Positions 15,563-63,378 of a stretch of 64,000 nucleotides of DNA are shown here, in pieces. Numbering within the stretch: position 1 is the first letter of the stretch; each line of letters opens with the position of its first letter. The DNA is taken from assembly GCA_017521025.1 (NCBI GenBank), contig JAFXEB010000009.1, positions 382 through 64,381 on the forward strand, written 5' to 3'. This DNA comes from Clostridia bacterium (GTDB taxonomy: Bacteria; Bacillota; Clostridia; Oscillospirales; CAG-382). The position numbers were made by a program, and so were the translations under genes. Below the pieces are notes generated by a model. The model was not told the DNA's origin, searched no databases, and saw only the letters and a list, made by a program, of their open reading frames with translations.

Positions 15563-15591
15563 CTCTGTTTATGATTTTCTGTTATAAGAAA

Positions 15592-17957: not shown

Positions 17958-18221
17958 AAAACAAAAGACTCGTCTCAAAAGCTTTGAGACGAGTCATTCA
18001 ACTCGCGGTACCACTCAAATTGCGGAGACGAACTCCGCCACCTTACAGGCTCAAACAAGCCCTTGCTTTAACGCAGCATTACGGAAGGAGCCTACTTGCG
18101 CACAAAAACACTTTCGGTCCTCCAACTCGGAAGTGATGGGTCATTGGAAAGCTCTGACATTGGCTCGCAGCAACCGCCAACTCTCTGTAGACTCGGCAAT
18201 CCGACCGTCTTCGTCATAGTT
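17958..18221 (-). promoter_or_regulatory. T-box riboswitch leader (specifier read as AUC, Ile) with a terminator/antiterminator switch
   Basis: Read on the minus strand:
- Stem I base with a K-turn-like AUGACGAAG...CUUCCGAG.
- AG bulge CAGAGAG.
- Distal loop GGUUGCUGCGAG.
- F-box-like GCGUUAAAG.
- Stem III GCGGAGuucguCUCCGC.
- T-box sequence AAUUUGAGUGGUACCGCGAG (18020-18001).
- The antiterminator pairs UUUGAG with CUCAAA, has the 7-nt bulge UGGUACC, and pairs GCGAG with CUCGU.
- It competes with the terminator GACUCGUCUCaaagcuuuuGAGACGAGUC plus UUUUGUUUU (17995-17958). Confidence 0.85.
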
Positions 18222-18250
18222 GTTTGTGATATTCAATTTCCTTGTCTCGC

Positions 18251-34757: not shown

Positions 34758-37700
34758 TTAATGTATATTCTCGTAGCCTGCGTCTTCTATGAACAGCTTT
34801 ACGCCGAACACGTCATCATAGCTTAATACAAATACCAGCTCAAACGCAAGCTCTCCGTCCCTTGCATTTGTAGAAAAGGCAACGTGTCCCTCTTTAAGCC
34901 TGCTCTGGTCAAAGTAATAGCTGAACCTTTGCACCTCGGGCAGGGTCAGCGTGTCAGCGGTGTTGAGGTCGAAGCTCATGATAAAATCGTATTCTCCATC
35001 CGGGTAGCCGTAGGTCGTAAGTCTTTCACACACCTCCGTGTTTCCCTCGCTAAATGCCTGTAGGAAAGCGCACATCAGCTTCATTGCCTTTTCCTCCTCG
35101 GCGGGTAACAGGGCATTTGAGGGTCTTTCGCCCTCTACCATCTCATACACCAGCCAACCCGAGAAAACTCCCAAGAGCTCGTCAAGCTCGCCCACGTCGG
35201 GCAGACTAACGGTACCGCCCTCACAGCTAAGCATCACGCTTTCTGCCCCGAGGTTGTAAATAACCGTGTTGACCAAAGCGCCGACCCCCTCGTATTGCAT
35301 CGTCGTCCCTGTGGATATGCCCTCGACGTAGGCTCGGTTTACGTCAAGGTATGCTGTGCCGTCCCTTATCTCAAGGCTGTTTATCTTGGAGCCTGCAGGG
35401 AGATTGCCGTGCTTTATAAGCGCTTTCATCATACCCTCTGCCGTCCCGTCATAATACACGTCCTTGGTCACTGAGTAATCATGATAGTATTCCGAGGTGG
35501 CGAACACCTTAAGCTCCTTAAAGGTGTTTTCCACGTGGTCTATGCTTGCGCCGAACACCTTTTCAGCCCTTGTCAGATCGTTATCGCCCTCATTTGCGCT
35601 CAGCTCTGCCCACCTGTCCTCGCTACCGCCGAAATATACCGTATCCAAGGAGGAGCAGCCAAGAAATTGATCGTACCTGATATCTCTCACGCTTTCCGGA
35701 ATAACGATATACATAAGACCCGTGCAGAGCTCGAAGGCGCCCTTGCCGATTTCCAAAATCCCGTCATTAATCGCTATTATTTCGAGCTTTTGGCAGTTCT
35801 CAAAAGCGTAGTTTTCTATCCTTTCCACTCCGTCGGGCAAGGTGTAGACGGCATCGCCTCTCATTGGCAGATATCGCACGATAGTAGTGCATTCCTCGTC
35901 AAAGAGTATTCCGTCCACCAATGTAAAGCTCCTGTTACCGGGCGAAAGCTCTATCTTTTCAAGCGCTGAGGAAGAAAGGGCTCTGTTGCCTATATGGGTG
36001 ACACCGGTGCCGATATACAGCTCCCTTATCTCTGTGCCGAAGAAGGCAAGCTCGCCTATGCTCAAAAGTCCCTTGCCAAGCTTCAGATCAGTAAGACCTG
36101 TACTGTGAAAGGCACCTTTGCCTATAGAAGAAACGCTGTCGGGAAGCACCAAGCTCTTAAGCTTATAGCAGTTCGAAAAAGAGTAGTCGCCAATCACCCT
36201 GAGTCCCTCTGCAAGTCTTACCTCCTCAAGCATTTCGCAGTTACCAAAGGCGCTTTCCTCAACGGTCTTCACACCATCGGGCAGTATTAGGCGCTTAAGC
36301 AGGCGGTTTTGGTAAAAGGCGTATGCGCCTATAAGCTCCGTCCCCTCCTTTACGGTGTAGCTCTCGTCCTCCTTTTCGGAGGGATAATAGAGCAGTGTCT
36401 TACCGTCCTTGGTATACAGTACCCCGTCCTCAGAGCTAAAGCTTTGATTGCCCCCGTCTACCGAGACGCTTTTTGCATTCACATACTTAAAGGCATCGAT
36501 AACGAAAAGCTCAAGGCTTTTCGGCAGGTGAAAACTGCTTGTGTAATTCACCTCCGCCAGCGCCTCGCCGCTTATATACTTTATACCCTCGGGTATACGC
36601 ACCTCATTGGCACTTGCGGGAGTATATACGTATAAAACCGTTCCGTCCTTACTGCAAAGATTTCCGTCCACTGCGCTGAAATATGGGTTATCCCCGTCTA
36701 CCGTAAAACAGCGCACTCCAAAAAACGCCTGTGGGTCTATCCGCCTTGTGCTTGCGGGGATATGTACGCTCTCCACCTGAAGGAAAGCGGAGTAGTTTAT
36801 GTTTCTTACCCCTTCAGGCAGTACAAGCTTGTTTATTTTGATGTGCTTCACCGCACCCGAGGCAATAAGCACAGTGCCTTCCTTTACCTCAAGCTCTCCC
36901 GTGTCCTTCGAGTCTATCAGACAGTTATCTACGTAAAAGCCACCGTTTTCCCAGTTGGCTGCATCGTTGTACAGGGCGGTTCCCTCAAACGCTTCCGAGA
37001 GTATCTCCAATACACCGCTCGGTATATTTATCTCCGAAAGCGCCGTGCAATTCTTAAAGGCGGCGCTCCCTATCACGATAAGGCTCTCGGGCAGACTTAC
37101 GGTTTCAAGCTTTTTGCAGTCCTCAAAGGCTGATGTGTCGATGCGGGTTATGCCCTCGCCTATAACGATGTGCTTTGCCTCTCTCACCTTTGGCTCCTTG
37201 AGACTCCACATGCTGTAAAGCACACCACTGCCCGTTACGGTAAGAGTTCCGTTTTCGTCAAGGCTCCATTTAATATCGTCAGGCTCCTTTGTCTCCTCTC
37301 TCCCAAAGCTTCGCTCGCTTTGCTTGTCGATAAAGCTAAGGGTATCCCCGTCGCAAAGCACACTGCTGAAGGTCTGAGAGCCGCCCATGTTGTACATCAA
37401 AGTAAGGCTTTCGTCCTTGACAAACCATATAAAGTCGGAGGAGTAGCCCTCGTAGCGGCATTTGCCGATACCATTCTTGCTGAAGACATATTCCTTGCCA
37501 ATATCAGCACCAAGTCCGTACCATGTGCCTGCCAACGCATCGGTGATAGCAGCATCCTTTTCTGCGCTTGTAGGTACATCTTCGTCCAGGGCCTCAAGCT
37601 TTTTGACAGTCAGATCGATCTTTGCCTGTATGTCGTCTGTGATTCTCTCCCAATAACCCGTTACCGGAAGGTAGTCTAAATCTAAAAGCCTTTCTGTATC

Positions 37701-40235
37701 CCAATGAAATTCATTATCAAGCCTGTATATGCGGTTGCTTCTGAGTATCTCAAGCATATCCATAGCAGTCTCTTTGTCGGTATTAAGCTCTCTTAACTCA
37801 CCCTCGTATACGGTAGGCAGGATCAATTCGCTACTGTACCTGCACAGCGCATCTATCAGATCAGCAAGCTGTCTGCCTCTCAGGTCAGCGATGTTTTTTG
37901 GACTGTTAGGTACAAATAGGCTTCTTGTAATGACTGTGTTGGAATAATATCTTTCCGTTTCGCTGCTGTATTTGGGGAAAGGTAAGATACCAAAGCTGTC
38001 CTCGGTGTCCTTTAATCTCGGCGCTTTGTTAAGACTTGTGGCAAGGAAAAGTCCACGGCCTTCTGTGAATGGGTTGATATTACATAGCGTAAAGCTGTCG
38101 TATCCTATACCGTATTTCTCTGTATGATACTTATCGAGGTCATACACGATGACGTCGTTTTCGTTTAAGTAAAGTTCGACCGCGGCAATCAGTGCATCGC
38201 TTCGGATCGCTTTCAGCGTGTTGATATAGGGCGTACCGTTTTCGTCCTTCAGAATTACTCTGTTGCCGTCAGAAATAAAGTGGTTGTAGAGCTGTCCTGT
38301 TCCGGTCAGCAGACCGTAAAGGTCACCCTCCGTTCTGACGCCGTCATCGTCAAGATCCTTGCCAAATCCCGTTACTATGTCCTTAAATCTGTCAAAGGTC
38401 CATTCGCCGTCCCGTACGAGCTGATACAAGGCTTCTGCGTCACCGCCGTTTTCCTCGTACAGAGTCTCGTTAAAGAATAGCACGGATGTGGCGCCGGTCT
38501 CTATGCCGGTAATATCACCTGTAAGGAAAAACTGCTTCCCGCAGATGCTAAGCTCATTTATGCCCTCGCTGTACCACCACGGCGCAGATGTATCTATACC
38601 AAGCTTTTTTGTATCATAAATAAGGCCTTGCTCAGCGTAGTTGGTGAAGTAATAAGTTCTACCCAGGCATAAGTCATATTCGCCCGTGCCGCCAAGCACG
38701 TCCTCATAAAGCAGATTTTTCATATCTACGGGCAGATCGGTGACCTTCGTGTTGATAACGCAGTTGTATTCCTTTTGCACCTTATCCAATACCTGCTTCC
38801 TTGCACTGTTTGCGGCAGTCATACTGCCGTCTTCCTCGTTCTCCCAGGCAAGGTCTGTGGACATATCTCTTTTACTTGTATCAAAGTAAGTGCGGTGCTC
38901 AAGCACTGTATACACTCTGCCGCCGTGATTCTTGGGGTCCGGTTCGCCGTCTGCCTCGCTCTCTGAGGATTGAGCGGTGCTTTCTTCCTCCTCGGATATA
39001 CTGCTGCTGTCGTCGGCGGTACCGTTCTCGGCTTTGGGATTTGTCATAAACCCAAGCAGTATGGCAACACAGGCTATCGCCGCAGCTATCATCACCCACA
39101 GCGCAGGCTTTTTGTAATTCAACACAGACCTTATCCTGCTCTTTACGTTTATCTCGCCGAATGCAAGGGGGCAGGCAGTAATAAGTCTTCTCGGAGCACT
39201 GCAGTTTATCAGTGCCATAGAATAGGGCTTTTTGTATTCAAGGCCCAGACCGCCCAACGCCTTTTCGTCAGTTGCATATTCAATATCTCTGCAAAGCAGT
39301 ATGTAAGCAAGCCACATAACGGGATTGAACCAATACACCGCCAGCAGTAAAAAACCAACAGGCTTCCACAGATGATCGCCTCTCCTTATATGGGCTCTCT
39401 CGTGGGCAAGCACGTATTTTGCGTCCTCCCCTGAAATGGAGGAGGGCAGATATATCCTCGGCTTGATAAGCCCTAAAATAAACGGTGTAGGAGCCTTGTC
39501 GCACACCATAACGCCTTTTTCAAGGGGAATTGCCTCTCTTACGGAACGGCGCACTCTGATATAGCTGACAGCAACGTAAGTAAGCATAAGCACTACGCCT
39601 GCCACCCATATTGCGGAGATCACAGGCAATGCTTCTGCAAAAAAGCTTTTGCCCTCTCCGTGGGTGTCGGTCTCCCCATCTCCTTCGGGAGCATCAGGGG
39701 GTGGGGGAGCGGTACCGTCACCCTCTTCCGTGTCAAAGGTGCCGCCGCCCACGGGTGCGCTGTCCTCGGTGCCTTCCGTGCTTTCGCCGCTACCGTCACT
39801 CTCCGAAGACTCGTCAGGCACTGCGCTTTCAGACCCGTCTCCCGAGTTATTGGGAACTACGGTGGTTTCCTCGGAGTCGGTGCTTGACTCTTCGGGTAGA
39901 GAATAGGGCGGCTCATCCTCGGACGAGTCTGTTTCAGATATCGCCTCCTCGCTCTCCGCAAGGCTTTCCTTCGCAGGGTGCGAAAAAGCGCTCTCCTCTA
40001 CAGTGCTGCTCTCCTCTCCGTACGCCACATTTACGGGCGCAGTGTTGGGAATAAGGCTGAATGCGCTTTCCACCGATAAGGGCAGAACAAGCCTGACGGC
40101 TACCAGTGCCCAAAGCATCACCGTGATAAACTTAGGCGCCTTCTTCAATACAAGCCTGAAAGCGATGACCGCAAGTGCCACCCAGCTTGCCGTGATGCTG
40201 ATATTCAGCAACTTTAAAAACAATGCCTCCATCAT
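34758..40235 (-). CDS. Giant BlaR1/MecR1-type M56 peptidase sensor (1825 aa) with a solute-binding-like region, BspA-type leucine-rich repeats and a GerMN-like C-terminal region
   Basis: - The N-terminal transmembrane helices are interrupted by a 130-aa acidic Ser/Glu/Asp/Gly-rich loop.
- The M56 zinc motif HERAH (codons at 39404-39390) sits in the context YVLAHERAHIRRGDHLWK.
- A further transmembrane helix and a Ser/Glu linker follow.
- A long extracytoplasmic part carries many LRR_5/BspA-like units (I..SAF..C..L..V.LP..L..IG..AF).
- A GerMN-like segment (LPAGSKINSLEIRDGTAYLDVN) is near the C-terminus.
- The gene is translationally coupled (ATGA) to the upstream blaI-like gene. Confidence 0.8.
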   Translation of the reverse strand: MMEALFLKLLNISITASWVALAVIAFRLVLKKAPKFITVMLWALVAVRLVLPLSVESAFSLIPNTAPVNVAYGEESSTVEESAFSHPAKESLAESEEAISETDSSEDEPPYSLPEESSTDSEETTVVPNNSGDGSESAVPDESSESDGSGESTEGTEDSAPVGGGTFDTEEGDGTAPPPPDAPEGDGETDTHGEGKSFFAEALPVISAIWVAGVVLMLTYVAVSYIRVRRSVREAIPLEKGVMVCDKAPTPFILGLIKPRIYLPSSISGEDAKYVLAHERAHIRRGDHLWKPVGFLLLAVYWFNPVMWLAYILLCRDIEYATDEKALGGLGLEYKKPYSMALINCSAPRRLITACPLAFGEINVKSRIRSVLNYKKPALWVMIAAAIACVAILLGFMTNPKAENGTADDSSSISEEEESTAQSSESEADGEPDPKNHGGRVYTVLEHRTYFDTSKRDMSTDLAWENEEDGSMTAANSARKQVLDKVQKEYNCVINTKVTDLPVDMKNLLYEDVLGGTGEYDLCLGRTYYFTNYAEQGLIYDTKKLGIDTSAPWWYSEGINELSICGKQFFLTGDITGIETGATSVLFFNETLYEENGGDAEALYQLVRDGEWTFDRFKDIVTGFGKDLDDDGVRTEGDLYGLLTGTGQLYNHFISDGNRVILKDENGTPYINTLKAIRSDALIAAVELYLNENDVIVYDLDKYHTEKYGIGYDSFTLCNINPFTEGRGLFLATSLNKAPRLKDTEDSFGILPFPKYSSETERYYSNTVITRSLFVPNSPKNIADLRGRQLADLIDALCRYSSELILPTVYEGELRELNTDKETAMDMLEILRSNRIYRLDNEFHWDTERLLDLDYLPVTGYWERITDDIQAKIDLTVKKLEALDEDVPTSAEKDAAITDALAGTWYGLGADIGKEYVFSKNGIGKCRYEGYSSDFIWFVKDESLTLMYNMGGSQTFSSVLCDGDTLSFIDKQSERSFGREETKEPDDIKWSLDENGTLTVTGSGVLYSMWSLKEPKVREAKHIVIGEGITRIDTSAFEDCKKLETVSLPESLIVIGSAAFKNCTALSEINIPSGVLEILSEAFEGTALYNDAANWENGGFYVDNCLIDSKDTGELEVKEGTVLIASGAVKHIKINKLVLPEGVRNINYSAFLQVESVHIPASTRRIDPQAFFGVRCFTVDGDNPYFSAVDGNLCSKDGTVLYVYTPASANEVRIPEGIKYISGEALAEVNYTSSFHLPKSLELFVIDAFKYVNAKSVSVDGGNQSFSSEDGVLYTKDGKTLLYYPSEKEDESYTVKEGTELIGAYAFYQNRLLKRLILPDGVKTVEESAFGNCEMLEEVRLAEGLRVIGDYSFSNCYKLKSLVLPDSVSSIGKGAFHSTGLTDLKLGKGLLSIGELAFFGTEIRELYIGTGVTHIGNRALSSSALEKIELSPGNRSFTLVDGILFDEECTTIVRYLPMRGDAVYTLPDGVERIENYAFENCQKLEIIAINDGILEIGKGAFELCTGLMYIVIPESVRDIRYDQFLGCSSLDTVYFGGSEDRWAELSANEGDNDLTRAEKVFGASIDHVENTFKELKVFATSEYYHDYSVTKDVYYDGTAEGMMKALIKHGNLPAGSKINSLEIRDGTAYLDVNRAYVEGISTGTTMQYEGVGALVNTVIYNLGAESVMLSCEGGTVSLPDVGELDELLGVFSGWLVYEMVEGERPSNALLPAEEEKAMKLMCAFLQAFSEGNTEVCERLTTYGYPDGEYDFIMSFDLNTADTLTLPEVQRFSYYFDQSRLKEGHVAFSTNARDGELAFELVFVLSYDDVFGVKLFIEDAGYENIH

Positions 40236-40603
40236 TCTGCCTCCTCATAGCTGTCCACCAGCCGTCTGAGCTGCTCAAGCTCCTCGGCGGTAAGCCGTTT
40301 CTTGGCGGTAAACGCCGCTAAAAAAGCGGGCAAAGAGCCGTCAAACTCCTCCTCTATAAAGCTGTTGCTTTTAGCGGAGTAGTAGTTGTCACGGCTTATC
40401 ACCGAGCTTACGATGCCGCCCTCGTTTTTGAACATCCCCTTATCACACAGCCTTTTCAGCACCGTGTAGGCGGTAGACTTTTTCCAACCAAAGCGCTCCT
40501 CGCATTTCTTTGCAAGCACCCCCGACGGTATAGGCTCGCTCTCCCATATAATATCCGCAAAGCGTGACTCTGCTGTTCCTAAAGAGTAATCGTTCATAGT
40601 CAA
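40232..40603 (-). CDS. BlaI/MecI/CopY family transcriptional repressor (123 aa)
   Basis: The winged-helix N-terminus (ESRFADIIWESEPIPSGVLAKKCEERFGWKKSTAYTVLKRLCDKGMF), the length and the pairing with an M56 sensor gene are all typical of the family. Confidence 0.85.
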   Translation of the reverse strand: MTMNDYSLGTAESRFADIIWESEPIPSGVLAKKCEERFGWKKSTAYTVLKRLCDKGMFKNEGGIVSSVISRDNYYSAKSNSFIEEEFDGSLPAFLAAFTAKKRLTAEELEQLRRLVDSYEEAE

Positions 40604-47271: not shown

Positions 47272-47300
47272 TTGACTTTACCCTCAGCGTGTTATATAAT
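47272..47300 (+). promoter_or_regulatory. Promoter of the HprK-like/PqqD operon
   Basis: TTGACT (47272-47277), a 17-nt spacer, then TATAAT (47295-47300), preceded by an AT-rich UP-like tract. Confidence 0.7.
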
Positions 47301-47352
47301 GATTATGTATTAAAAGGTGTACTTTACCTTTTTTGAGGGAGGAGGCGTTCTG

Positions 47353-48048
47353 TTGGCTGTTTACAGAGTATGCGGCTTGGGTTTGGAGATGTTTCCACAG
47401 TATTCCGAGCTGGGGGACAGAGCAAAGCCTTTTCTCGACGATGGTGCTCCCGTCAGTATACGTCTCTTTTGGGATGAGGAGGAGATAAAGGCGCTGTGCG
47501 CCGCTACGGGCCTCAGTGAGCCTCTTGCCGAATATCAGCTAAGCTGTATCCGCTTTTGCCAGGCGATACTTGCCTACGGTGGCTTTGTGCTCCATGCCTC
47601 TGCCGTGAAATACGGCGGTCAGGTCTATCTGTTTTCTGCTCCCAGCGGGGTCGGTAAGTCTACCCACGCTTCTCTGTGGGTGGGCTGTCTTGAGGGTGCA
47701 CGGGTCATAAACGACGATAAGCCCGCCATACGTCTGATAGACGGCGTGCCCTATGCCTACGGTACTCCCTGGTGCGGTAGCGGCAGGCTCACCGCCAATG
47801 ACGGCGGCAGGGTAAGGGCGCTGTACTTTCTGCGCAGGAGCGAGCAAAACCTTGCCTACGCAATGGAGAAGAGCTGTGTGCCGTATTTGCTTTTTGAGTC
47901 AACGCTCCGCCCCGTCGATAAAGAGGGGATGGATAGCCTTTTTTCCTGCCTTGACGGCTTTGTAAGGTCTGTGGGCGTGTTTGGGCTTGACTGCAATACC
48001 GAGGACGGTGCGGTGTACGCCGCTCTGTCTGTTTTGGAAGAGGAATAG
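47353..48048 (+). CDS. HPr kinase/phosphorylase C-terminal-domain-like kinase (the HprK-related type seen in RiPP clusters)
   Basis: The P-loop context HASAVKYGGQVYLFSAPSGVGKSTHASLW is followed by NDDKPAI and GTPWCGSG. I placed the start at a TTG at 47353, 7 nt after the SD ggaggagg. The track starts at a GTG 12 codons upstream. Confidence 0.75.
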   Translation: MAVYRVCGLGLEMFPQYSELGDRAKPFLDDGAPVSIRLFWDEEEIKALCAATGLSEPLAEYQLSCIRFCQAILAYGGFVLHASAVKYGGQVYLFSAPSGVGKSTHASLWVGCLEGARVINDDKPAIRLIDGVPYAYGTPWCGSGRLTANDGGRVRALYFLRRSEQNLAYAMEKSCVPYLLFESTLRPVDKEGMDSLFSCLDGFVRSVGVFGLDCNTEDGAVYAALSVLEEE

Positions 48049-48051
48049 ATT

Positions 48052-48318
48052 ATGAAAATAAAAGAAGGCTTTGTGCTCAGGCAGATCGATGACAACTACA
48101 TAATCGTACCTACGGGCAGTGCAAGGCTTTCCTTTAACGGGATGATAAGCTTCAACGCCACGGGCGCTCTTATATGGCGCTCTATGGAGTCGGGCATGAG
48201 CAAGGCAGATACCGCAAGGGCTATAGTCTCTGCCTATGATGTCAGCGAGGAGAGGGCGCTTTCCGATATAGACGCCTTTTGCAAAAGGCTTAAGGAGGCG
48301 GGTCTTGTTGAGCAATGA
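48052..48318 (+). CDS. PqqD family protein (RiPP recognition element-type, 88 aa)
   Basis: The pattern ...FVLRQIDDNYIIVP......FNGMISFNATGALIWRSME.G.SKADTARAIVSAYDVSEERALSDIDAFCKRLKEAGLV matches the PqqD length and pattern. Confidence 0.8.
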   Translation: MKIKEGFVLRQIDDNYIIVPTGSARLSFNGMISFNATGALIWRSMESGMSKADTARAIVSAYDVSEERALSDIDAFCKRLKEAGLVEQ

Positions 48319-48721
48319 GCAGCTTGTCGCTTTAATAAGCGAGCGCTTGTGTACAGGCGGCACGGCAAGCCTTACCGTAACGGGCAACAGCATGGCACCG
48401 ATATTTAAGTCGGGCGTTACCGTGGTAAGCCTTAAAAAATGTGATAATATACGCAAATACGACATAGTGCTGTATCAAAGGCAAAACGGCACCGTTGTGC
48501 TTCACAGGGTCATAAGGGTAGCAGGCGACACCCTTGTGCTCAGAGGAGACAACGATATACAAACAGAAAAGGGTGTACCTTGCGCCGCTGTCATCGGCTT
48601 GGCATACGAGGCGTGTACAGAGGGCAAAAGGGTGCATCTGCAAGGCATCCGTAACAGGATGCAGGGACGGTATGCGGCGCTTAAGCGCAGCGTAAAAAGG
48701 CTCTTTTATAAAAAGCGATAG
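48305..48721 (+). CDS. Soluble S24/S26-family peptidase-like protein with a His in place of the general-base Lys (ER/SipW-like dyad)
   Basis: It has the nucleophile motif GNSMAP (Ser codon at 48389-48391), then DIVLY...VLHRVIRVAGDTLVLRGDN. There is no N-terminal transmembrane anchor. The start is non-ATG (TTG at 48305 or 48308) and overlaps the end of the PqqD gene. Confidence 0.65.
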   Translation: MLSNEQLVALISERLCTGGTASLTVTGNSMAPIFKSGVTVVSLKKCDNIRKYDIVLYQRQNGTVVLHRVIRVAGDTLVLRGDNDIQTEKGVPCAAVIGLAYEACTEGKRVHLQGIRNRMQGRYAALKRSVKRLFYKKR

Positions 48722-48730
48722 AGGGACAAA

Positions 48731-50896
48731 ATGACTTTAACCGAGAAATATATGATAAATGCATACGCCGCCTCATTGGCAGGCAAGCCATGCACGGTGC
48801 CCCATGCGGGCGTTGAGCCTATGGAGCTGTATGAGCTTGCTATGGGGCAGGGCATAGCACCCGCTCTGCACTTCGCACTTAAGGACAGTGACTGGCTGCC
48901 TGAGGACGTTGCAAGGCGCTTTGACGAGGCACACGCCAAGTCGGTAATGCGTGACCTCAAGCGTGAGGAAGAGGAGAAAAGGGTGTTTGCCGCCTTCGAT
49001 AAGGCAGACATAAGCTATCTCCCCCTTAAGGGCAGCGTTATACGCAGCTTCTACCCATCGCCCGAGATGCGTACTATGGGTGATACCGACATAATGATAG
49101 AGCGCTACGCCCGCAAGGACGTAGGCAAGGCCATGAAGGAATGCGGCTACAGGATTTGCGATTCCCATAGCGGTCACGATATCTACATGCACGAAAACGG
49201 CTGTGTGTTCGAGCTTCATTGGAGGCCCGAGGACGGCGGTGATTTTCACAGCAAGCTTATGGAGCGTGCTTTGCCTGTGGGTGAAAAGGGCAACTGCTTA
49301 TCTCTCAGCGTAAGCGACTTTTATTTGTATATGATATCTCATCTGGCACGCCATGTTCGCACCACGGGTGCAGGCGTGCGCCTGTTTGCAGATATTAAGG
49401 TGTTTTATTCAAAGCAGGGCGCAAGGATGGATGAGGCGTACATCAAAAAGACTCTTGCCGAAATGGGACTTGTACGTTTTGAGCGAGAGGTCAAAAAGCT
49501 TATCCACAGCCTGTTTTACGGTGCCCCTGCAGACGAAACCACTGCCCGCTTTGCTGAGTATGTGGTGTGTGGCGGCGTTTTCGGCAGTGCCGAAAACCTG
49601 GCGGCAAATAAGCGTGGTGACAAAAGTGCGATAGGCTATTTCTTCTCCTCTGTTTTTCCCGGCTACAGCGCAATGAAGGAGCGTTATCCCTTTTTGAAAT
49701 ACCTGCCCTTTCTGCTTCCTGTTATGTGGGTGGTGCGCTGGTTCTCCCTGCTTTTTCGTGGTAAAAAGCCTGTGTCACGCTATAAAAAGGGCGCAGGTGT
49801 AAGCAGACAAACCGTCAAAAACAACAAGCTTTTACTTGAGGAGCTTGAGATAAAACGCTTTAAGGACGGCAAGCTGCGTATGACGGCAGGCGACATTGCC
49901 CTTGCCCTTTTCGGTGTGTGCTTCCTTATCTTTGCAACCGTGTATGTGGGCAGGAGCTTTTTTGTGGCAGACAGCGGCAGAGCACCTCTTTTTATCACAG
50001 AAAGTGTCCAACTGCCCGAGGATTCAGAGGAGGAAAACTCCGAGGATAACCGCATACCCGAGCGTAGCTACGGCACCGTCCCCTACAAGGACGGTCTGTA
50101 TACGGGCTATATGTACAGAGGTCTGCCTGACGGAACCGGCACCCTTATGTTCAATTCGGGTGAGAGCTACAGTGGTAGCTTTGCCGAGGGTGAGTTCAAC
50201 GGTAACGGACTATATAAATACAATGACGGCTCCCGTTATGACGGTATGTGGTACGAGGGCGAGATAAACGGTGACGGTACTTGGTATTTTGCGGACGGCA
50301 GCTTTATATCGGGCAACTTTTTCGAGGGTGAGCCTGAGGGCGTTTGCGTTTATGAGTGTGCAAACGGCGATATCTATGAGGGCACTCTTAAGGACGGCAA
50401 ATGGCACGGTCAGGGCAAGTTCGTCTGGGTCAACGGCGATACCTATGAGGGCAGCTTTGTGGACGGCATCCGTCAGGGTGAGGGCAAGTATCAGTACTGT
50501 GGCGGTGACGTTTACGAGGGCGGCTGGATAAACAACAGTCCCAACGGCTACGGCACCTTCAAGATGTCGGGCGCTTCCTTCACGGGCATTTTCGTAGAGG
50601 GGATACTCGAGGGTGAGGGCACCGCTGTCCTTGCCAACGGCGACAAATATACGGGTTATTTCATACACGGCGCCTTCAACGACGATAAGGCTACATACAC
50701 CTTCAAAAAGGGCGGCAGCTATGTGGGCGGCTTTGAAAACGGCGTATTCCACGGAGAGGGCACCCTTACATACAAGGATGGCGACAAGGTTACGGGCACC
50801 TTTGAAAACGGCAAACTTCAGGGCAAGGCACGCTATTACTACAGTGGGAGCGGGGTATGGCGCACCGTCACCTACAAGGATGGCGAGCCTAAGTAA
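48731..50896 (+). CDS. Nucleotidyltransferase (NTP_transf_5-like) fused through a transmembrane segment to about 11-12 MORN repeats (721 aa)
   Basis: The N-terminal segment LPLKGSVIRSFYPSPEMRTMGDTDIMI...HDIYMH...FELHW is typical of the 'uncharacterised nucleotidyltransferase' family. A hydrophobic helix IALALFGVCFLIFATVYVG follows. After it comes a 23-aa periodic Y.G....G...G.G repeat array (from about 50080 to 50890). Confidence 0.75.
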   Translation: MTLTEKYMINAYAASLAGKPCTVPHAGVEPMELYELAMGQGIAPALHFALKDSDWLPEDVARRFDEAHAKSVMRDLKREEEEKRVFAAFDKADISYLPLKGSVIRSFYPSPEMRTMGDTDIMIERYARKDVGKAMKECGYRICDSHSGHDIYMHENGCVFELHWRPEDGGDFHSKLMERALPVGEKGNCLSLSVSDFYLYMISHLARHVRTTGAGVRLFADIKVFYSKQGARMDEAYIKKTLAEMGLVRFEREVKKLIHSLFYGAPADETTARFAEYVVCGGVFGSAENLAANKRGDKSAIGYFFSSVFPGYSAMKERYPFLKYLPFLLPVMWVVRWFSLLFRGKKPVSRYKKGAGVSRQTVKNNKLLLEELEIKRFKDGKLRMTAGDIALALFGVCFLIFATVYVGRSFFVADSGRAPLFITESVQLPEDSEEENSEDNRIPERSYGTVPYKDGLYTGYMYRGLPDGTGTLMFNSGESYSGSFAEGEFNGNGLYKYNDGSRYDGMWYEGEINGDGTWYFADGSFISGNFFEGEPEGVCVYECANGDIYEGTLKDGKWHGQGKFVWVNGDTYEGSFVDGIRQGEGKYQYCGGDVYEGGWINNSPNGYGTFKMSGASFTGIFVEGILEGEGTAVLANGDKYTGYFIHGAFNDDKATYTFKKGGSYVGGFENGVFHGEGTLTYKDGDKVTGTFENGKLQGKARYYYSGSGVWRTVTYKDGEPK

Positions 50897-50909
50897 GCGG
50901 TGACCGACT

Positions 50910-51581
50910 ATGAAAAAGCTTAAAGAATTTATACGCAGATATCCTTACGCTCTGCTTTTCGCATACTGGCCCTTTTACGGGATATGGTATTCGGTGCTGC
51001 AGGCGATAACTATGGAGCGTGACCCTTATCCTCTGGTCTGCGGACTTGATATGGAGATTCCCTTTTGCGAGTGGCTTATCATCCCCTATGTGCTGTGGTA
51101 TCTGCAGCTTCTGGGCGTAGGTATTTACAGCTTTCTGTATAACCCCAAGGGCTTTATCAGGCTGTGCCTGCTGGTGACGGGCGGTACCACCTTCTGCCTT
51201 ATCGTATGCACCTTGTTTCCTATGTATTTTGACCGCACGGGCATGGTGCTTTACTATAACGATAACCTGCTTACGGATTTCGTAAGGTTTTTGCAGGGCT
51301 TTGACCCCCCCACCACGGTAATGCCAAGTATGCACGTTTATGTTACACTTGCCCTCCATATAGGACTCTGCAAGGATGAATATGCAAGAAAAAACAAGCT
51401 TTTGCTTGCCTGCTCCTTGGTCTACAGCCTTACCGTATGCCTCGCAACCGTTGTGACAAAACAGCATTCCATACTTGACGTGGGTGCATCGGTACTGCTT
51501 ATCGGCGTTATGTATTTCGTTGCCTATGTGCCCAAATATAAACGGCTGATGCGGCTTGCTACAGAGCCGGTGCTCGTGTAA
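50910..51581 (+). CDS. PAP2-superfamily membrane protein (PAP2_3, sphingomyelin/IPC-synthase-like motif set)
   Basis: It has six hydrophobic segments, and the motifs MPSMHV and TKQHSILDV correspond to the P-S-x-H and H-x3-D PAP2 blocks. Confidence 0.7.
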   Translation: MKKLKEFIRRYPYALLFAYWPFYGIWYSVLQAITMERDPYPLVCGLDMEIPFCEWLIIPYVLWYLQLLGVGIYSFLYNPKGFIRLCLLVTGGTTFCLIVCTLFPMYFDRTGMVLYYNDNLLTDFVRFLQGFDPPTTVMPSMHVYVTLALHIGLCKDEYARKNKLLLACSLVYSLTVCLATVVTKQHSILDVGASVLLIGVMYFVAYVPKYKRLMRLATEPVLV

Positions 51582-51596
51582 TGAACAAAATAATAA

Positions 51597-51630
51597 GCGA
51601 GGTGTTTGCCCATAGGGTAAACACCTCGCT
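51597..51630. terminator. Terminator between convergent genes
   Basis: agcgaggtgttt (51597-51608) pairs with aaacacctcgct (51619-51630) and is followed by TTTTTTG on the plus strand. Confidence 0.8.
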
Positions 51631-51647
51631 TTTTTGTATCGCTGTTA

Positions 51648-54600
51648 TCAGCCTTTTTTCATAGCGGTCTTCATGGCAATGCCGTCGGCAGAGGAAATGT
51701 CTCCGTCACCGTTCATATCCGCCGCCTTGCTGTATGCACCATCAAGCGTAGCGCCGCCCTTGAGCACCATTCTTGCAATGGCGTAGTCTGTGGTGGAAAT
51801 ACCGCCCGAGCTGTCAAGGTCGCCGATAACTACTACAGTAACGCTGTCGCACACCTCGCCGTTAAACACAAGTCGTACAGTACAGCCTGTGCCGACGGTA
51901 GCCGTAGTTGTCATCAAGACTCCGTCTGCGGAATATACCTCAACGCCATCGTTGTCAAAGTTTGCGATAAGTGTGGATACGGCAGTGCCCAGCTCAACGC
52001 CCAGCAGATAGCTGTCTGCATCTCTGGTGTAGGTAGAGCCCTCTGCTATGATAAGATAATCCACGCCAAACAGAGGCAGGGGGTAGGGATATGCAGAGTT
52101 TACTGTGCTCTTTTGTCTCCACTTGGTGCCGGACGCCGAAAGCTTTGTGGCAAAAGCGGCTGTCTTCATATCAGCGGCTGCCATACTGCCCGTGGTCAGG
52201 AAGTTGGCGGCGAAAGCCGTGTACTCTGTACTTGTAACGTAATAGCATCCCGAAACAACGCCAAGGTTAATACCTGCAATGCCGCCCATATGAACGGTAG
52301 AGCCTACCTCTACACCGCAGTAGCTGTTCTTTACCACGCCTGCGTTATAGCCAACGATACCGCCCGTGTTCATGCCGCCGTTGATGGTGCCTATGGTGTA
52401 GCAGTCCGCCACGGTACCGCCGTTGTAGCCCACTACGCCGCCCACATACATATGATTAAGAGCAAAGGTTCCGTAAAGAGTGTAGTGGTCGGAGATATAG
52501 CCGCCGTTCACTTTCTCGTTGTTTACCTTGTATGTAAGGCTCTCCGAACCGCGGTTGTTGGTGAAGATAAAGTCTATAAGAGAAGAGGAGGCGCCCCAAC
52601 CGTGGAAGGTGGTCTGAGAGGCAGAGGACTGCATGGTTGCCGCATCCGTCCTTAGGTCGGTTAGGTAGCTGTTCATATTCTTGTAAGCCGTCGTGGTAGT
52701 GCCGCAGTTATAGTCACCTGTGCAGTATATGGCGATATTGTCGCCGTAGCCAAGGTCACGGTATTTCTTTTCCAGCTCAATGGCACGCTTGGTAACAAGC
52801 TTGCCGCTGTTGGTCCTTGCAGTGCTGCTCTTGTGGTCAAAATGGGTGTTCATCGCTATGACAAGTATGCCGCTTGCCTTGTGCTTAAGCACCGCATAGC
52901 TGCAGGTCCTGTTAAGGGATGCGTCCCAGCCTATGGACATAACGTCAGGCGTCTCGCTAAGCCAGAAGGTGCCCTGCTCCAGAGAGGTGAATACCGAAGT
53001 GTTCCAGTACAGGGGAGCCGCCTCGCTTTTTCCGGAATCACGCCATACAAACTCCTTGTTATATCCCGAAAGGTGGGAGTTAAGCACTGTCTGCCACGCA
53101 GGCGTTACCTCCTGAAAACCAACAATGTCAGGTGCGTAGGTCGTAAGGTGCTGCTTCACACGGGGAGTACGGTCTGCCAAAGCGTTGGGCGATGCATCGT
53201 TTGGCACACGGATATTGAAGCTCATAACGGATATGGTATAGTTGTCCTTCCAATAACCTCCCGCAAAGGAGTCGGTGCCGCAGTTAATCACAGAGCCGCC
53301 GTGGTTCTTACCTACAATAGCACCCGTGTATGAGCCGCCCTCTATCTTGGAGGCGCCAAGGAACAGGTTCTTGACCGTACCGCCAAGCAGACAGCCGAAC
53401 ATAGCGTTACCTGCGGTGTTGTTTGACATATTGTAGCCGCTTACCGTAAAGCCCTGACCGTCAAAAATGCCGCTGAAGGGTGCGCTTTCCTTGCCGATGG
53501 GCACACAGGTTCGGGAGGACATATCTATGTTTGCGGTAAGCCTTATGTAGGTATCTGCGTAGCTTGTGCCTCCGTTTACCGCCGTTGCAAGGGCGGCAAG
53601 CTGTGCGGCGGTGCCGATTTCCATAGTTTTCATAGCAGTAGTATTCATAACAAACTTAAGTGTAGAATCTGCAGTGGCCGAAAGCGCCTCTGCTGCATAG
53701 GCAGCAGTGGTGCTGTTTTCGGGCAGCACCTTGTCGCCGCTGTTGCAGAAAATGACCGATTTGGTGATAAGGTCACCGTCTCCGTTCACACAATCCGCAT
53801 CCACTTTTATAGCAGAGGAGGAGAGGGAGCGGAAGGTGAGTATAGCGGGATAAAGAGGGGTTGCGGTAAATACGCCGCTGTTGTTTGCGGTACCGCCCTT
53901 GGTGTTAAGAAGCCACGCAACCTCGCCGCAGGCAAATGCTGTGTTGTCCTTCTCCACACCGTAGGTGGATTTACTGCTGTCCTTTAGATAATAAGAGCCA
54001 ACGGGCACCTTACTCAAGGAACCGTTAAAGCGTGTAAGACCCTGAATATTGACGCCGGTCGAGGTGAGCATACCTGCATTATAGCAGTTTACCAACACGG
54101 CGGTCTTCTGACCCCAGCCTGTGATACCGCCAACGCAGTCCGCATCTGCATGAACGGAGCCTATGTTGAAGCAGTTGGTAAAGGTGGTGCCGCTTCTGCC
54201 TACACCTGCAATACCTGCAGTACCGTCCTCCCCTGTGAGAGATTTAACGGTAGCGCCGTTGTAGCACCTTACAAACTTGCAGGCATCCGCATAGCCTGAA
54301 ATACCGCCTGCTCTGTTGGCAGAGGTAACAGTGCCGTTCGTTACGCCAAAATCGTAAAACTCAGCCTTGTAAGAGCATCCGAAAAGTCCTGCGCCGTTGA
54401 GTGCCGTGCTGTTGACCTTAATGTCGTGCACCCTGTGCTCAAGGCCGTAAAGCTTGCCCTGAAAGCTGGTGGAGTAATCAGAATCGGAGATATATACACC
54501 GATAGGCGTATGGGTTATCGAGTTCATATTTATGTCGGCAAGCACATATATGCTATCGCCCGAGAAGGTGTCAGTGCCGGCGTTGACTACCTCTGCCATT

Positions 54601-55847
54601 TTTGTAAATCCTGCTGCAGTGCTGATAACAAAGGAGGTGGCGGTGCTGTTGCTTGCGTAATCAAGCACGTTGGGGACAGAGGTTGTTATCTTAAGCGAAG
54701 CCGCCGCCGCAGGCATGGTGAATACATTGTTCGTCACGTTGCCCGTGGAGGAAAGGGTAGCATTGATACCGCTCAGGGGATATACTGCACCTGCGTTCAT
54801 ATAATTCGTAACCGAAGAGGAAACCCCGTTGGCTACCACGGTTATGGAGAGCTTGTAGGTGCCCATGGCGGTATCGCCCGAAAGCTCGGGGAAAAGCTCG
54901 CCTTGATGCCATACACGGGTACGGTTAGACGTGGAGCCGTTATCCAGATTATATGCAAGAGTGCCGTTGGTAAGCTGTCTGCCTGCTATCTTAACGTCGG
55001 CGGTGGTAAAGCTCAGGTCGGTGTGACTGCCCGTATAATAGCTGTTTACTACCGCTGCCGAATAATTGGACTCAAGTATGGAGGCGGAATATCTGCCAAG
55101 GCCGTAGGTAGCAGTGGCCTTGAGGTCGCCTATGCTGTAGCAGTTTACTATCTGACCTACAGCCCCCTCGTTTTGACCCTGACACCAGTCCGAAATGCCC
55201 GATGCGTGCTCAACGCCCGTGGCAGTACCCGCAAAATAGCAGTTTTTGATAAGGCCGCCGCTTAGCGTGCCGCCCGCAATACCGCCTACGGAAAGGTCGG
55301 TAACGGTGCTGCCCTTGGTGATAACAAGGTCAGCGGTGCTGTAGCAACGCTCAATGGTACCGCCCGAAAGCACACCCGCAATACTGCCAAGCCTGTCGGA
55401 ATCCAGAGAGGAGGCAAGCCTCATGCTGCCGCCTTCAACACCGAGATTTTTTACAATACCTGTGGAGCTTACCTTGGCAAAAACGCCTGCCGAGCCACCT
55501 ACTGCATCTATCTGTATGCCCTTCAGGGCAAAGCCTTTTCCGTCAAAGGTGCCTGCAAAGGAGGCGAAGGGTGTATAGGTACCCAACGACATATCAATAT
55601 CGCCGCCGAGATATACGGTTTTGCCCTTGAACGTTGTGGTCGAGGCAAGAGACGAAAATTTCAACATCCCAAAATACGATGTAATAATAAAGCTGCTTGA
55701 CGAGGTGTTGCTTTCATATTCCATAATATTCGGCACGGTGCTTGCCGCATCAACCGATAACCCTCTTCCGGGGAAGGTGAAGGCAGAGAACACCATAGCA
55801 AAAAGCAGTAATGCCGATATCGCTCTTTTGGTAATTAGCTCTTTCAT
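51648..55847 (-). CDS. Secreted 1399-aa protein with GLUG-motif repeat regions flanking an endonuclease/exonuclease/phosphatase (EEP) domain, and a C-terminal dockerin
   Basis: - Signal peptide MKELITKRAISALLLFAMVFSAFTF.
- Recurrent GG(I/V)(A/T/V)G GLUG-like units.
- EEP segment ISVMSFNIRV...DIVGFQEV...NTHFDH...SDHY.
- Dockerin GDLDSSGGISTTDYAIARMVL and ADMNGDGDISSADGIAMKTAM. Confidence 0.8.
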   Translation of the reverse strand: MKELITKRAISALLLFAMVFSAFTFPGRGLSVDAASTVPNIMEYESNTSSSSFIITSYFGMLKFSSLASTTTFKGKTVYLGGDIDMSLGTYTPFASFAGTFDGKGFALKGIQIDAVGGSAGVFAKVSSTGIVKNLGVEGGSMRLASSLDSDRLGSIAGVLSGGTIERCYSTADLVITKGSTVTDLSVGGIAGGTLSGGLIKNCYFAGTATGVEHASGISDWCQGQNEGAVGQIVNCYSIGDLKATATYGLGRYSASILESNYSAAVVNSYYTGSHTDLSFTTADVKIAGRQLTNGTLAYNLDNGSTSNRTRVWHQGELFPELSGDTAMGTYKLSITVVANGVSSSVTNYMNAGAVYPLSGINATLSSTGNVTNNVFTMPAAAASLKITTSVPNVLDYASNSTATSFVISTAAGFTKMAEVVNAGTDTFSGDSIYVLADINMNSITHTPIGVYISDSDYSTSFQGKLYGLEHRVHDIKVNSTALNGAGLFGCSYKAEFYDFGVTNGTVTSANRAGGISGYADACKFVRCYNGATVKSLTGEDGTAGIAGVGRSGTTFTNCFNIGSVHADADCVGGITGWGQKTAVLVNCYNAGMLTSTGVNIQGLTRFNGSLSKVPVGSYYLKDSSKSTYGVEKDNTAFACGEVAWLLNTKGGTANNSGVFTATPLYPAILTFRSLSSSAIKVDADCVNGDGDLITKSVIFCNSGDKVLPENSTTAAYAAEALSATADSTLKFVMNTTAMKTMEIGTAAQLAALATAVNGGTSYADTYIRLTANIDMSSRTCVPIGKESAPFSGIFDGQGFTVSGYNMSNNTAGNAMFGCLLGGTVKNLFLGASKIEGGSYTGAIVGKNHGGSVINCGTDSFAGGYWKDNYTISVMSFNIRVPNDASPNALADRTPRVKQHLTTYAPDIVGFQEVTPAWQTVLNSHLSGYNKEFVWRDSGKSEAAPLYWNTSVFTSLEQGTFWLSETPDVMSIGWDASLNRTCSYAVLKHKASGILVIAMNTHFDHKSSTARTNSGKLVTKRAIELEKKYRDLGYGDNIAIYCTGDYNCGTTTTAYKNMNSYLTDLRTDAATMQSSASQTTFHGWGASSSLIDFIFTNNRGSESLTYKVNNEKVNGGYISDHYTLYGTFALNHMYVGGVVGYNGGTVADCYTIGTINGGMNTGGIVGYNAGVVKNSYCGVEVGSTVHMGGIAGINLGVVSGCYYVTSTEYTAFAANFLTTGSMAAADMKTAAFATKLSASGTKWRQKSTVNSAYPYPLPLFGVDYLIIAEGSTYTRDADSYLLGVELGTAVSTLIANFDNDGVEVYSADGVLMTTTATVGTGCTVRLVFNGEVCDSVTVVVIGDLDSSGGISTTDYAIARMVLKGGATLDGAYSKAADMNGDGDISSADGIAMKTAMKKG

Positions 55848-60717: not shown

Positions 60718-61779
60718 ATGAATTTTCTGAAAAAAGCGGCTTTTTCGCTGATATACGGCGTTTTGTTGATTTCCTTTACCGCCTACATTCTTTTGTATAC
60801 CTATGTGTTGCCCGATGACGGTATCGACGTTCAAAACCCACCCGACACCATAATATGGGGCGACCAAAGCTCTGCGTCTGAGCCTGAGTCCGGTGCTGAG
60901 TCCGGTGCAGAAAGCGTTTCGGATCAAAGCGAGCTCTCCGATGATAGCGGTGAGGAGAGTGCCGAAAGCGCAGAGCAGTCTTCTGAGGAGGAGTCTTCAG
61001 AGGAGGAGTCTTCCGAGGAAAAGCCTGTATGGCACGAGCCTGTTATCACCGACACCTCATACGATGACGGTCTGGTGCAGATTACGCTCACCACCTATAG
61101 GGAGTACAATACTACCATCTACGTTGCAGACATCAAAATAGCCACACCTGAGCTCCTTAAAACAGGGCTTGGCGGCGACAGGTTCGGCAGAAACATACTC
61201 AGAAAGACATCCGATATAGCCGCAGGCAAGGAAGCAATTCTTGCAGTAAACGGCGACTATTACTGTGCAAGAAAGGGCTGTGTTCTTCGTAACGGCGCTT
61301 TGTACCGTGATTTCAGCAACGACCCCGATGACGAGTCTCTCGTTATCTACGCCGACGGCTCGGTTGACTGCGTCAAGGAGTGTGAGTCTGACGGTGAGAC
61401 CCTGCTTGCGGCAGGTGCTATGCAGGTCATCTCCTTCGGTCCTGCCCTTATAGAGGACGGCGAGCTTAGCGTTACCACCACTGACGAGGTAGATAGGGCA
61501 ATGGTGCTTAATCCCCGTTGCGCCTTTGCATATTACGATAAGCTTCATTACGCTTTTGTGGTATCTGACGGCAGAACAAGCGAAAGCAAGGGACTAAAGC
61601 TTTATCAGCTTGCCGAGTTTATGAAGGGGCTTGGCGCTAAGGAGGCGTACAACTTTGACGGCGGCGGGTCTGCCACTATGTATTTCAACGGCAAGGTCAT
61701 CAACAAGCCCACCACAAACGGTAAAGAAATAGTTGAAAGGAAGGTCAGCGACATTGTCTACATCGGCTATAAATACTAA
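60718..61779 (+). CDS. Phosphodiester glycosidase family (NAGPA/DUF2233) protein with an N-terminal anchor and an acidic Ser/Glu linker
   Basis: It has a transmembrane helix FSLIYGVLLISFTAYILLYTYV, an SE-rich linker, and the segments ILAVNGDYY, PRCAFAY and AYNFDGGGSATMYF typical of DUF2233. Confidence 0.75.
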   Translation: MNFLKKAAFSLIYGVLLISFTAYILLYTYVLPDDGIDVQNPPDTIIWGDQSSASEPESGAESGAESVSDQSELSDDSGEESAESAEQSSEEESSEEESSEEKPVWHEPVITDTSYDDGLVQITLTTYREYNTTIYVADIKIATPELLKTGLGGDRFGRNILRKTSDIAAGKEAILAVNGDYYCARKGCVLRNGALYRDFSNDPDDESLVIYADGSVDCVKECESDGETLLAAGAMQVISFGPALIEDGELSVTTTDEVDRAMVLNPRCAFAYYDKLHYAFVVSDGRTSESKGLKLYQLAEFMKGLGAKEAYNFDGGGSATMYFNGKVINKPTTNGKEIVERKVSDIVYIGYKY

Positions 61780-62209: not shown

Positions 62210-62279
62210 AGCGTATTTGCGTATAATAGTGCAGAGAGCTTTATAAAGCACATCTGCAGTTTTAAGGAGAATAAGCGTT

Positions 62280-63323: not shown

Positions 63324-63349
63324 ACTTAATATAAACCTACGCATCATAA

Positions 63350-63378
63350 AAGGAGCCGTCCGCATAAGACAGCTCCTT
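63350..63378. terminator. Hairpin between convergent ddl and the ABC exporter gene
   Basis: aaggagccgtc (63350-63360) pairs with gacagctcctt (63368-63378) and is followed by CTTCTTTTG. Confidence 0.65.

Follow-up and report, generated by a model that had tools for sequence, protein, structure and literature searches.

The linear polyphosphorylated peptide (LPP) family, one of the groups of peptides made by the ribosome and modified after translation (RiPPs), was defined from SipW-like signal peptidases adjoining RiPP recognition elements (RREs), and was founded on about 126 loci, most of them from Bacilli (Popov et al., Nat Commun, May 2026, PMC13381572). The core of such a cluster is formed by five proteins: a signal peptidase I (SpI)-like peptidase (LppS), a discrete RRE (LppB), an HprK-like kinase (LppK), a nucleoside triphosphate (NTP) transferase (LppN) and an MsbA-like exporter (LppD); the precursors carry YxxPxVLxHQxIxFETxxS (PMC13381572). 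In B. subtilis, LppK places up to four phosphates on core Ser3, and LppS removes the leader in an LppB-dependent manner (PMC13381572). Here we describe a related operon of five genes (g1 to g5, positions 47353-51581, plus strand) in a 64,000-nucleotide stretch of a Clostridia bacterium (contig JAFXEB010000009.1 of assembly GCA_017521025.1), hereafter the window. On our analysis it is probably an LPP-type RiPP maturation operon, in a Clostridia-specific variant whose precursor is most likely encoded elsewhere in the genome.

The other described systems close to the operon are the lasso-peptide clusters of the paeninodin/pseudomycoidin type. PsmN of the pseudomycoidin cluster, a homologue of LppN, is required for the phosphoserine to receive one or two hexoses; the protein is similar to ANT(2'') enzymes, and the D134A/D136A exchange abolishes its function (PMC6993621). 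An earlier note on this DNA, made from the letters alone, had recognized that an HprK-like kinase, a PqqD protein and a PF14907 transferase make up the accessory set of these lasso clusters, and rightly so; its further statement that the gene combination has no known function no longer stands, as kinase, RRE, SpI-like peptidase and NTP transferase together are the published LPP core.

The five genes are tightly packed between a promoter match and a terminator, and all five open reading frames (ORFs) are as the earlier note described them. The first, g1 (47353-48048), encodes a putative LppK-like P-loop kinase with an HprK fold, of 231 amino acids (aa) and belonging to the ScmC family PF27840; its likely start is the TTG at 47353, seven bases after an AGGAGG at 47340, while the longest ORF would begin at the GTG at 47317. 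It is followed by g2 (48052-48318; an LppB-like discrete PqqD-type RRE of 88 aa), g3 (48305 or 48308 to 48721; an LppS-like soluble homologue of SipW/archaeal-type Ser/His signal peptidases, 137-138 aa, and a putative leader peptidase), g4 (48731-50896; a PF14907 nucleotidyltransferase fused to a transmembrane (TM) helix and a MORN array) and g5 (50910-51581; a polytopic membrane protein of 223 aa, probably a divergent member of the PAP2 superfamily). The spacings from g1 to g5 are 3, -14, 9 and 13 nt, the g2/g3 overlap being 11-14 nt depending on which start g3 uses. Hydrophobicity divides the products: g1-g3 are without any hydrophobic segment, g4 has one strong TM segment, and g5 is polytopic.

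Profile searches bore out the domains that had been proposed for g2, g3 and g4; g5 lies at the PAP2_3 threshold, and the kinase was recovered by its fold rather than by Pfam. The g1 protein has no match in our local copy of Pfam, while its homologues carry the precomputed family PF27840 (ScmC). Its NCBIfam matches are weak, to HprK_rel_A (TIGR04352; 20.3 bits against a cut-off of 200) and to ScmC (TIGR04249; 15.9 bits against 125), so that it does not belong to the HPr-rel-A system; nor, as the window has no radical SAM gene, is the operon a SynChlorMet cassette, in which ScmC accompanies radical SAM/SPASM maturases and with which only the broad family PF27840 is common. Sequence-only searches of the PDB gave nothing useful for g1 or g5, and g1 needed a fold search: the AlphaFold2 model (pLDDT 94.8, from a 29-sequence alignment) has as its best Foldseek neighbours in the PDB the HprK/P structures 1kkl, 1kkm and 2qmh (E ~4e-6 to 1e-4), and next the phosphoenolpyruvate carboxykinases, which have the same fold as HprK/P. 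Two motifs do not vary within the family, the Walker A motif SAPSGxGKST and NDDKPA. On its modelled fold, g1 is predicted to be an HprK-like kinase of the kind that LPP clusters carry.

The recognition protein g2 matches PqqD (PF05402, 4.6e-15) and the lasso_PqqD models, and in the PDB it matches TfuB1, TbiB1 and LppB (9x8z). Its residues N35, Y62, D72 and F76 align with N33, Y60, D70 and F74 of LppB, which hold the YxxP motif in the crystal structure of LppB with its leader. These contacting residues are kept in the orthologues of the g2 clade and are equally conserved in the RREs of loci that have a YxxP precursor, and g2 is accordingly predicted, from the alignment, to be a discrete PqqD-type RRE able to hold a YxxP leader, as in LPP clusters.

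The peptidase g3 matches Peptidase_S24 (PF00717, 4.8e-7), and its best NCBIfam match is the archaeal-type signal peptidase I (TIGR02228, 5.7e-11); it carries GNSMAP and LHRV. BLASTP aligns it over its full length with P. alginolyticus LppS (E 2e-10, 21% identity), with GxSMxP, HR and GDxN in register, and it is 36% identical to an Anaerocolumna SpI from cluster 4 of the sequence similarity network of PMC13381572, a cluster left unanalysed there. The same Ser/His(/Asp) motifs GxSMxP, HR and GDxN are common to the housekeeping SipW/archaeal-type signal peptidases I; unlike these, g3 has no membrane anchor, its gene is coupled to that of an RRE, and it scores 25.8 bits against the SipW equivalog, for which the cut-off is 190. 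A SpI/SipW-like Ser/His peptidase adjoining a discrete RRE, the arrangement from which the LPP family was defined, is present in g3 and g2, and the suggestion of the earlier note that this anchorless Ser/His peptidase could act as a leader peptidase matches what experiment has found for LppS (PMC13381572).

In g4, the LPP-type NTP transferase is present as a fusion. Its N-terminal part (48731-49765, plus strand) is composed of the LppN/PsmN-like PF14907 domain (NTP_transf_5, 2.6e-43), with the nucleotidyltransferase motifs LKG, D118xD120, E161xH163 and D221 invariant, and of the conserved C-terminal hydrophobic helix of the family, YPxLKxLPxLLPxxWVxRW, which is common to the stand-alone N proteins (we use A, K, B, S, D and N for the counterparts of the lpp genes). 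The model of this part (pLDDT 89) has ANT(2'')-Ia and LnuA as its best fold neighbours. A single TM helix follows (aa 389-407, IALALFGVCFLIFATVYVG; 49895-49951, plus strand), the only segment above 1.6 on the Kyte-Doolittle scale (2.45 in a 19-residue window), then an acidic Ser/Glu-rich linker, variable among 14 homologues, and the MORN array (~aa 450-721; 50078-50896, plus strand; PF02493, 2.4e-35), with profile matches to the MORN1 and junctophilin structures. Because g4 has a single TM helix with a basic flank on its N-side and an acidic one on its C-side, the transferase domain is probably in the cytoplasm, with the MORN array across the membrane on the outside. We also considered whether the linker is a built-in substrate, as FFVADSGRAPLFITES with the acidic run after it looks like FTVADIITES, a motif of the precursors; across the 14 homologues the motif is not kept, and the candidate was rejected. 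Only about 22 protein clusters, at 40-100% identity, carry the fusion, and in the supplementary table of the LPP study MORN and PAP2_3 occur once each among 126 neighbourhoods, with neither term in its main text (PMC13381572).

The partner of this fusion, g5, scores 27.2 bits for PAP2_3 against a cut-off of 27.0, and 23.1 bits for PAP2 against 27.2. Its PSMH (139-142) and KQHSxxD (184-190), invariant in six orthologues, correspond to the PAP2 motifs C2 (PSGH-like) and C3 (SRx5Hx3D-like); a clear C1 motif KxxxxxxRP was not found in g5, nor a sequence relative in the PDB. The family holds 1,375 representative clusters, only two of them above 45% identity, and its members match PAP2/PAP2_3 near threshold. 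A PAP2-type gene stands directly after the N-MORN gene in every locus seen. This pair occurs without K-B-S at two loci, L086 (4093-6723) and L088 (271-2903), and is on that ground a separable module. L086 has the same upstream synteny as the window (PhosphMutase/Beta-lactamase2), and the N proteins of both loci have lost ~60 aa of hydrophobic sequence (YPxLKxLPxLLPxxWVxRW) which is conserved elsewhere, stand-alone proteins of the LppN type included.

Since the pair occurs without kinase, RRE and peptidase genes, the transferase-PAP2 half may have a non-peptide substrate, an alternative that the earlier note had raised. The operon could then be a composite, in which g1-g3 form an LPP-like peptide module, while g4 and g5 are an independent envelope module that shares the transcript and acts on a lipid or wall polymer instead of the peptide, transferring or trimming a phospho- or nucleotidyl-linked group there. 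We think this unlikely, yet it is the rival to be taken most seriously: besides L086 and L088, where N-MORN and PAP2 are kept alone, fusions to lipid enzymes (CDP-OH_P_transf, CrtO) occur among distant g5 relatives, g4 and g5 sit in the membrane while g1-g3 are soluble, and the published lpp clusters sit in capsular polysaccharide loci, LppN being inactive on the peptide in the heterologous host (PMC13381572). Set against this, PF14907 transferases are a core co-occurring part of LPP- and paeninodin-type clusters and PsmN acts on a phosphopeptide (PMC13381572, PMC6993621), and the loss of the conserved N segment from the variants without K-B-S means that these may be derived or degenerate. Furthermore, the five genes are syntenic, as the earlier note required of a real system, in the window and in L001-3, L006, L007 and L087, with overlaps or gaps of at most 13 nt and a differing downstream context. 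In the five orthologous K-B-S loci examined (L001-3, L006, L007, L087), the order K-B-S-N-MORN-PAP2 is likewise found without precursor or exporter.

For the precursor we combined a leader hidden Markov model (HMM) built from related loci, an iterated HMM, the regular expression [YW]xxP and a list of small ORFs filtered by Shine-Dalgarno sequence. The view was extended through L091, a locus on the 282,035-bp metagenomic scaffold (ERZ28653715 scaffold_22) of which the window is the last 64 kb; the window starts ~425 bp from the scaffold end, so that ~8 kb could be added on the inner side only and ~72 kb were examined in all. None of these searches found a precursor in the window, in the ~8 kb past its inner end or in the regions flanking six orthologous loci, in agreement with the absence already noticed from the sequence; the one to three in-cluster YxxP-leader genes expected of an LPP cluster were absent from the window, from L091 and from the orthologous loci alike. 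When 1,980 small intergenic ORFs from the loci compared were clustered all against all, a single conserved family emerged, the YxxP precursor itself, which is absent from the window and from its clade.

The enzymes of the lasso pathway were absent as well. Pfam scans of the large ORFs of the window found no Asn_synthase cyclase, no Transglut_core3 (B2 protease) and no radical SAM enzyme, and there is no exporter in the operon, all as the earlier note had it; neither cyclase nor B2 is found among the called genes of L001-3, L086, L087 and L091 (including the 8 kb past the window). The large ORFs of the window include no macrolactam synthetase, in keeping with the linear product of LPP systems. 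It follows that the operon is hardly a piece of, or an accessory to, an ordinary lasso cluster of the paeninodin type nearby, which the earlier note had named as the finding that would undo its proposal: lasso clusters of Bacillota do typically have the kinase, PqqD and the PF14907 transferase as accessory genes, and of the published SpI genes about one-third have a link to lasso genes (PMC13381572), whereas the SipW-like peptidase defines the linear (LPP) branch and no cyclase or B2 was found in the window or the next 8 kb. For the 72 kb examined this explanation is largely refuted, and we give it very little credence indeed.

The sole ABC (ATP-binding cassette) gene of the window is the 3' part of an MsbA-type exporter at its edge (63391-64000, minus strand), ~12 kb downstream of the operon. 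In L091 it continues (12674-16337) as a heterodimeric MsbA-type pair of 630 and 592 aa, behind unrelated genes, and nothing in the ~72 kb points to this pair serving the operon. Besides this pair, the 8 kb past the window contain a repeat array and genes of sporulation or the wall. The array lies at L091 16558-17274 (~3.3-4 kb past the window end), where two copies of a 231-nt unit, 85% identical, stand in a 1.1-kb gene-free stretch, each unit containing an array of 34-nt C-rich repeats (CCCCACGGCGAACCCCC...GCCTTCTCCCTC).

A wider survey shows what the relatives of these genes look like. The g1 family is large, with more than 7,699 matches among 8,000 candidates scored, and a one-genome-per-species scan gave 80 loci, iterated ORF searches covering 79 species loci. 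Nearly all of the 80 are Clostridia metagenome-assembled genomes (MAGs; Oscillospiraceae, Acutalibacteraceae, Ruminococcus, Lachnospiraceae and others); two kinase matches are labelled as Acholeplasma and Bacteroides MAGs, which may be binning errors. Near the g1 homologue, a PqqD gene is found in 59 of the 79 loci, a g3-like peptidase in 39, an ABC exporter in 31, a PF14907 transferase in 11 and a short precursor-like ORF in 18. In another 11 of the 79 (among them L011, L022, L024, L026, L032, L063, L065, L072 and L075), some on short contigs, the g1-type kinase has no detectable PqqD, peptidase, exporter, transferase or precursor within 9 kb: the kinase family may be broader than the LPP-like system, or the partners may be encoded elsewhere.

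The Clostridial precursors share a conserved N-terminus, MKKYxKPxxEIxxFxxEDVITxS, in which the YxxP-x-hydrophobic spacing is that of lasso-type leaders, followed by a variable and very acidic core, whose last residue is often aromatic (…SVSDEF, …DDGWY, …WSDFFQ). A profile search of public data found 484 further peptides. Complete sets of precursor, K, B, S, exporter D and N do occur, e.g. in Herbivorax sp. ANBcel31 L048, L074 and L045. Among 33 well-flanked loci having B or S, a precursor is detectable within 9 kb in only 9, and five loci have precursor and kinase with neither B nor S nearby; this low linkage indicates that the components are often dispersed in Clostridia.

Two further proteins of these loci deserve mention. 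Small predicted lipoproteins of ~59-71 aa are encoded in L020 (8745-8924), L041 (6172-6351) and L074 (9783-9998), all on the plus strand, between the precursor and the kinase gene and directly upstream of the latter; they have a signal peptide ending in a Cys lipobox and an acidic tail ending in ...EEWNEV, ...LEWDDA or ...EMWTDEP, and may be immunity proteins or a second type of substrate. A conserved protein of 289-323 aa without a Pfam match is encoded by the last gene, in the LppN position, of the A-K-D-B-S clusters L004 (11135-12004), L025 and L062; the 289-aa protein of the L004-type clusters was considered as a PF14907 relative and rejected (hhalign probability 0.3, no detectable similarity).

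The operon itself does not appear to be decaying. Across lineages the five genes are intact at saturated synonymous divergence (dS), and an estimate of the ratio of non-synonymous to synonymous divergence (dN/dS) was obtained from 6 of 10 comparisons, for g1, g2, g3 and g5 with none for g4, and lies at 0.17-0.44; all five genes appear to be under purifying selection, with dN/dS estimates for four of the five. Together with the invariant catalytic motifs and the kept YxxP-pocket residues, the intact ORFs suggest that the peptide module is still functional. The same data bear on the idea that the operon is the remnant of a once complete LPP cluster which lost its precursor and exporter and makes no product. 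Such a history would account for a locus without either gene, and some relatives have lost K-B-S too; on the other hand, genes intact over saturated synonymous sites with low dN/dS, invariant catalytic and binding motifs, and a strong promoter-like site, Shine-Dalgarno sequences and a terminator, all kept, make it quite improbable.

We therefore return to the LPP-type operon with a precursor in trans. Given that the YxxP-pocket residues are kept, that selection appears to be purifying and that components are dispersed in Clostridia, a trans-encoded precursor is the simplest reading; and as the four LPP enzymes are present and the cyclase is absent, while an exporter and an in-cluster precursor are missing, we regard the operon as a variant of the LPP type rather than as a standard member. 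Several observations weigh against this assignment. The searches described above found no precursor around the operon or its orthologues, and among the 120 best matches to the precursor profile none was assigned to a contig of the MORN clade; the in-cluster MsbA-like exporter LppD has no counterpart in the operon. The similarity of g2 to LppB by sequence is weak (E 0.5), and that of g3 to LppS is low (21%). The N-MORN-PAP2 half, found without K-B-S in L086 and L088, need not depend on a phosphopeptide. Finally, the experimental support for LPP chemistry comes from the P. alginolyticus lpp system and none of it is Clostridial, and deletion of lppN changed nothing in B. subtilis, where the authors suppose that a partner is needed (PMC13381572).

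In the scheme that we infer for the operon, which extends to the trans-encoded precursor, the order of steps, the g4/g5 chemistry and the MORN topology, g2 would bind a YxxP-type leader peptide encoded elsewhere, by analogy with P. alginolyticus lpp. It would present the peptide to g1, which would phosphorylate a Ser close to where the core begins, perhaps several times over, and to g3, which would remove the leader. The PF14907 domain of g4 would then elaborate the phosphate, as a homologue of the PsmN needed for hexose addition to phosphoserine, and this step would take place at the membrane, with one TM anchor, an outward-facing MORN array and the translationally coupled PAP2-type g5; the latter may be a phosphatase or phosphotransferase that trims or transfers the phosphate-linked group. 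One could go further and suppose that g4 and its PAP2 partner are the missing last LPP steps, by which a membrane lipid or an acceptor in the envelope would receive the phosphopeptide, or the group added to its phosphate, and hold it at the surface, so that no free peptide would be exported. We hold this extension to be doubtful, more so than the composite operon discussed above; if the product did stay at the surface, that would explain why the clade has no exporter, and if the extension is true, the PAP2-type protein would be the partner that LppN lacked in the published heterologous system.

Transcription signals frame the five genes. Upstream lies a sigma-70-type promoter match, TTGACT-17 nt-TATAAT (47272-47300, plus strand; 11 of 12 matches), ~50 nt 5' of the g1 start codon; as the region has 5 promoter-like sites against 5.1 in shuffles, which is not above chance, the call rests on match quality and position only. 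The 200-bp intergenic region also holds divergent promoter-like sites for the phosphoglycerate mutase gene. Downstream, an intrinsic terminator (51595-51631, plus strand) has a 17-bp stem with 9 GC pairs, a 3-nt loop and a T run. Rfam found no leader or riboswitch at the operon, and the PADLOC anti-phage defence models gave no matches.

Found in the flanks are a cofactor-independent phosphoglycerate mutase, a protein resembling class-A beta-lactamases and dockerin/cohesin surface proteins, as well as a BlaI/BlaR1 pair, a prophage remnant and a giant GH94 protein. Converging on the operon terminator is the gene (51648-55847, minus strand) of a secreted protein of 1,399 aa that has GLUG motifs, an endonuclease/exonuclease/phosphatase domain and, at its C-terminus, a dockerin; related loci do not keep it beside the operon. 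At 60718-61779 (plus strand), 9 kb downstream, is the gene of a phosphodiester glycosidase of the NAGPA family, which has a Ser/Glu-rich linker. Members of this family break sugar-1-phosphodiester bonds, the type of linkage proposed for hexose on phosphoserine, and a link with the operon, several unrelated genes away, is speculative. The ORF at 62262-63365 (minus strand) is spurious, the real gene there being Ddl on the plus strand. Further upstream on the minus strand are the prophage remnant or phage-like region (3938-12099; capsid, P22-like portal, large terminase and an amidase-SH3 lysin gene), a 2,362-aa GH94-family protein (18324-25412), glycoside phosphorylase-like and with a glucoamylase-like domain, and a BlaI-type repressor followed by an unusually large 1,825-aa BlaR1/M56 sensor-protease fused to a long BspA-type leucine-rich-repeat region (34758-40603). 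Just 3' of the GH94 gene and on the same strand is a T-box leader (17982-18226, minus strand; 99.7 bits), which from its strand and position would regulate a minus-strand gene further downstream, below 17982.

What is new here is the size and distinct leader of the Clostridial branch, the existence of a clade without precursor and exporter, and a transferase that is anchored in the membrane and has a PAP2-type protein as its obligate partner. LPP-like machinery, counted at more than 7,699 homologues of the kinase and at hundreds of precursor clusters, is very common in gut and rumen Clostridia. As operons of this kind are without both a precursor and a class-defining cyclase, detectors of biosynthetic gene clusters that need a cyclase or an adjacent precursor would probably miss them. 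The transferase is here tied physically to the membrane and genetically to a PAP2-type protein, which is a concrete candidate for the partner that LppN is supposed to need.

Three known systems can be set beside the operon. With the paeninodin/pseudomycoidin-type lasso clusters (PadeK, PsmK, PsmN) it has in common an HprK-like kinase of the precursor Ser, a B1-type RRE and a PF14907 transferase, for which the ANT(2'')-like fold and the essential DxD pair of PsmN are both found again in the N-domain of g4; it differs in being without cyclase, B2, precursor and exporter, and in having a serine SipW-like peptidase instead of the lasso cysteine protease. The lppA-K-B-S-D-N cluster of P. alginolyticus DSM5050 has the same four enzyme types, no macrolactam synthetase and the same K-B-S order, and the Tyr-binding Asp, Asn and Phe of the LppB RRE are also present in g2. 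Here the operon differs by the absence of precursor and MsbA-type exporter, the TM-MORN extension of the transferase and the extra PAP2 gene, and also by host, a gut Clostridia/Oscillospiraceae-like MAG as against Bacilli; the leaders differ likewise, YxKPxxEIxxFxxEDVITxS in the Clostridial relatives as against YxxPxVLxHQxIxFETxxS in the P. alginolyticus type. The third comparison is with the complete Clostridial A-K-B-S-D(-N) loci (L048, L004, L025, L045, L062 and L074). Unlike the operon, these have an ABC exporter and, as precursors, one to two short acidic peptides that carry a YxxP leader, and their N is a stand-alone protein of ~370-415 aa, without TM-MORN and without a PAP2 gene; their K (35-40% identity), B, S and, in some, N are homologous to those of the operon, and follow the same K-B-S order.

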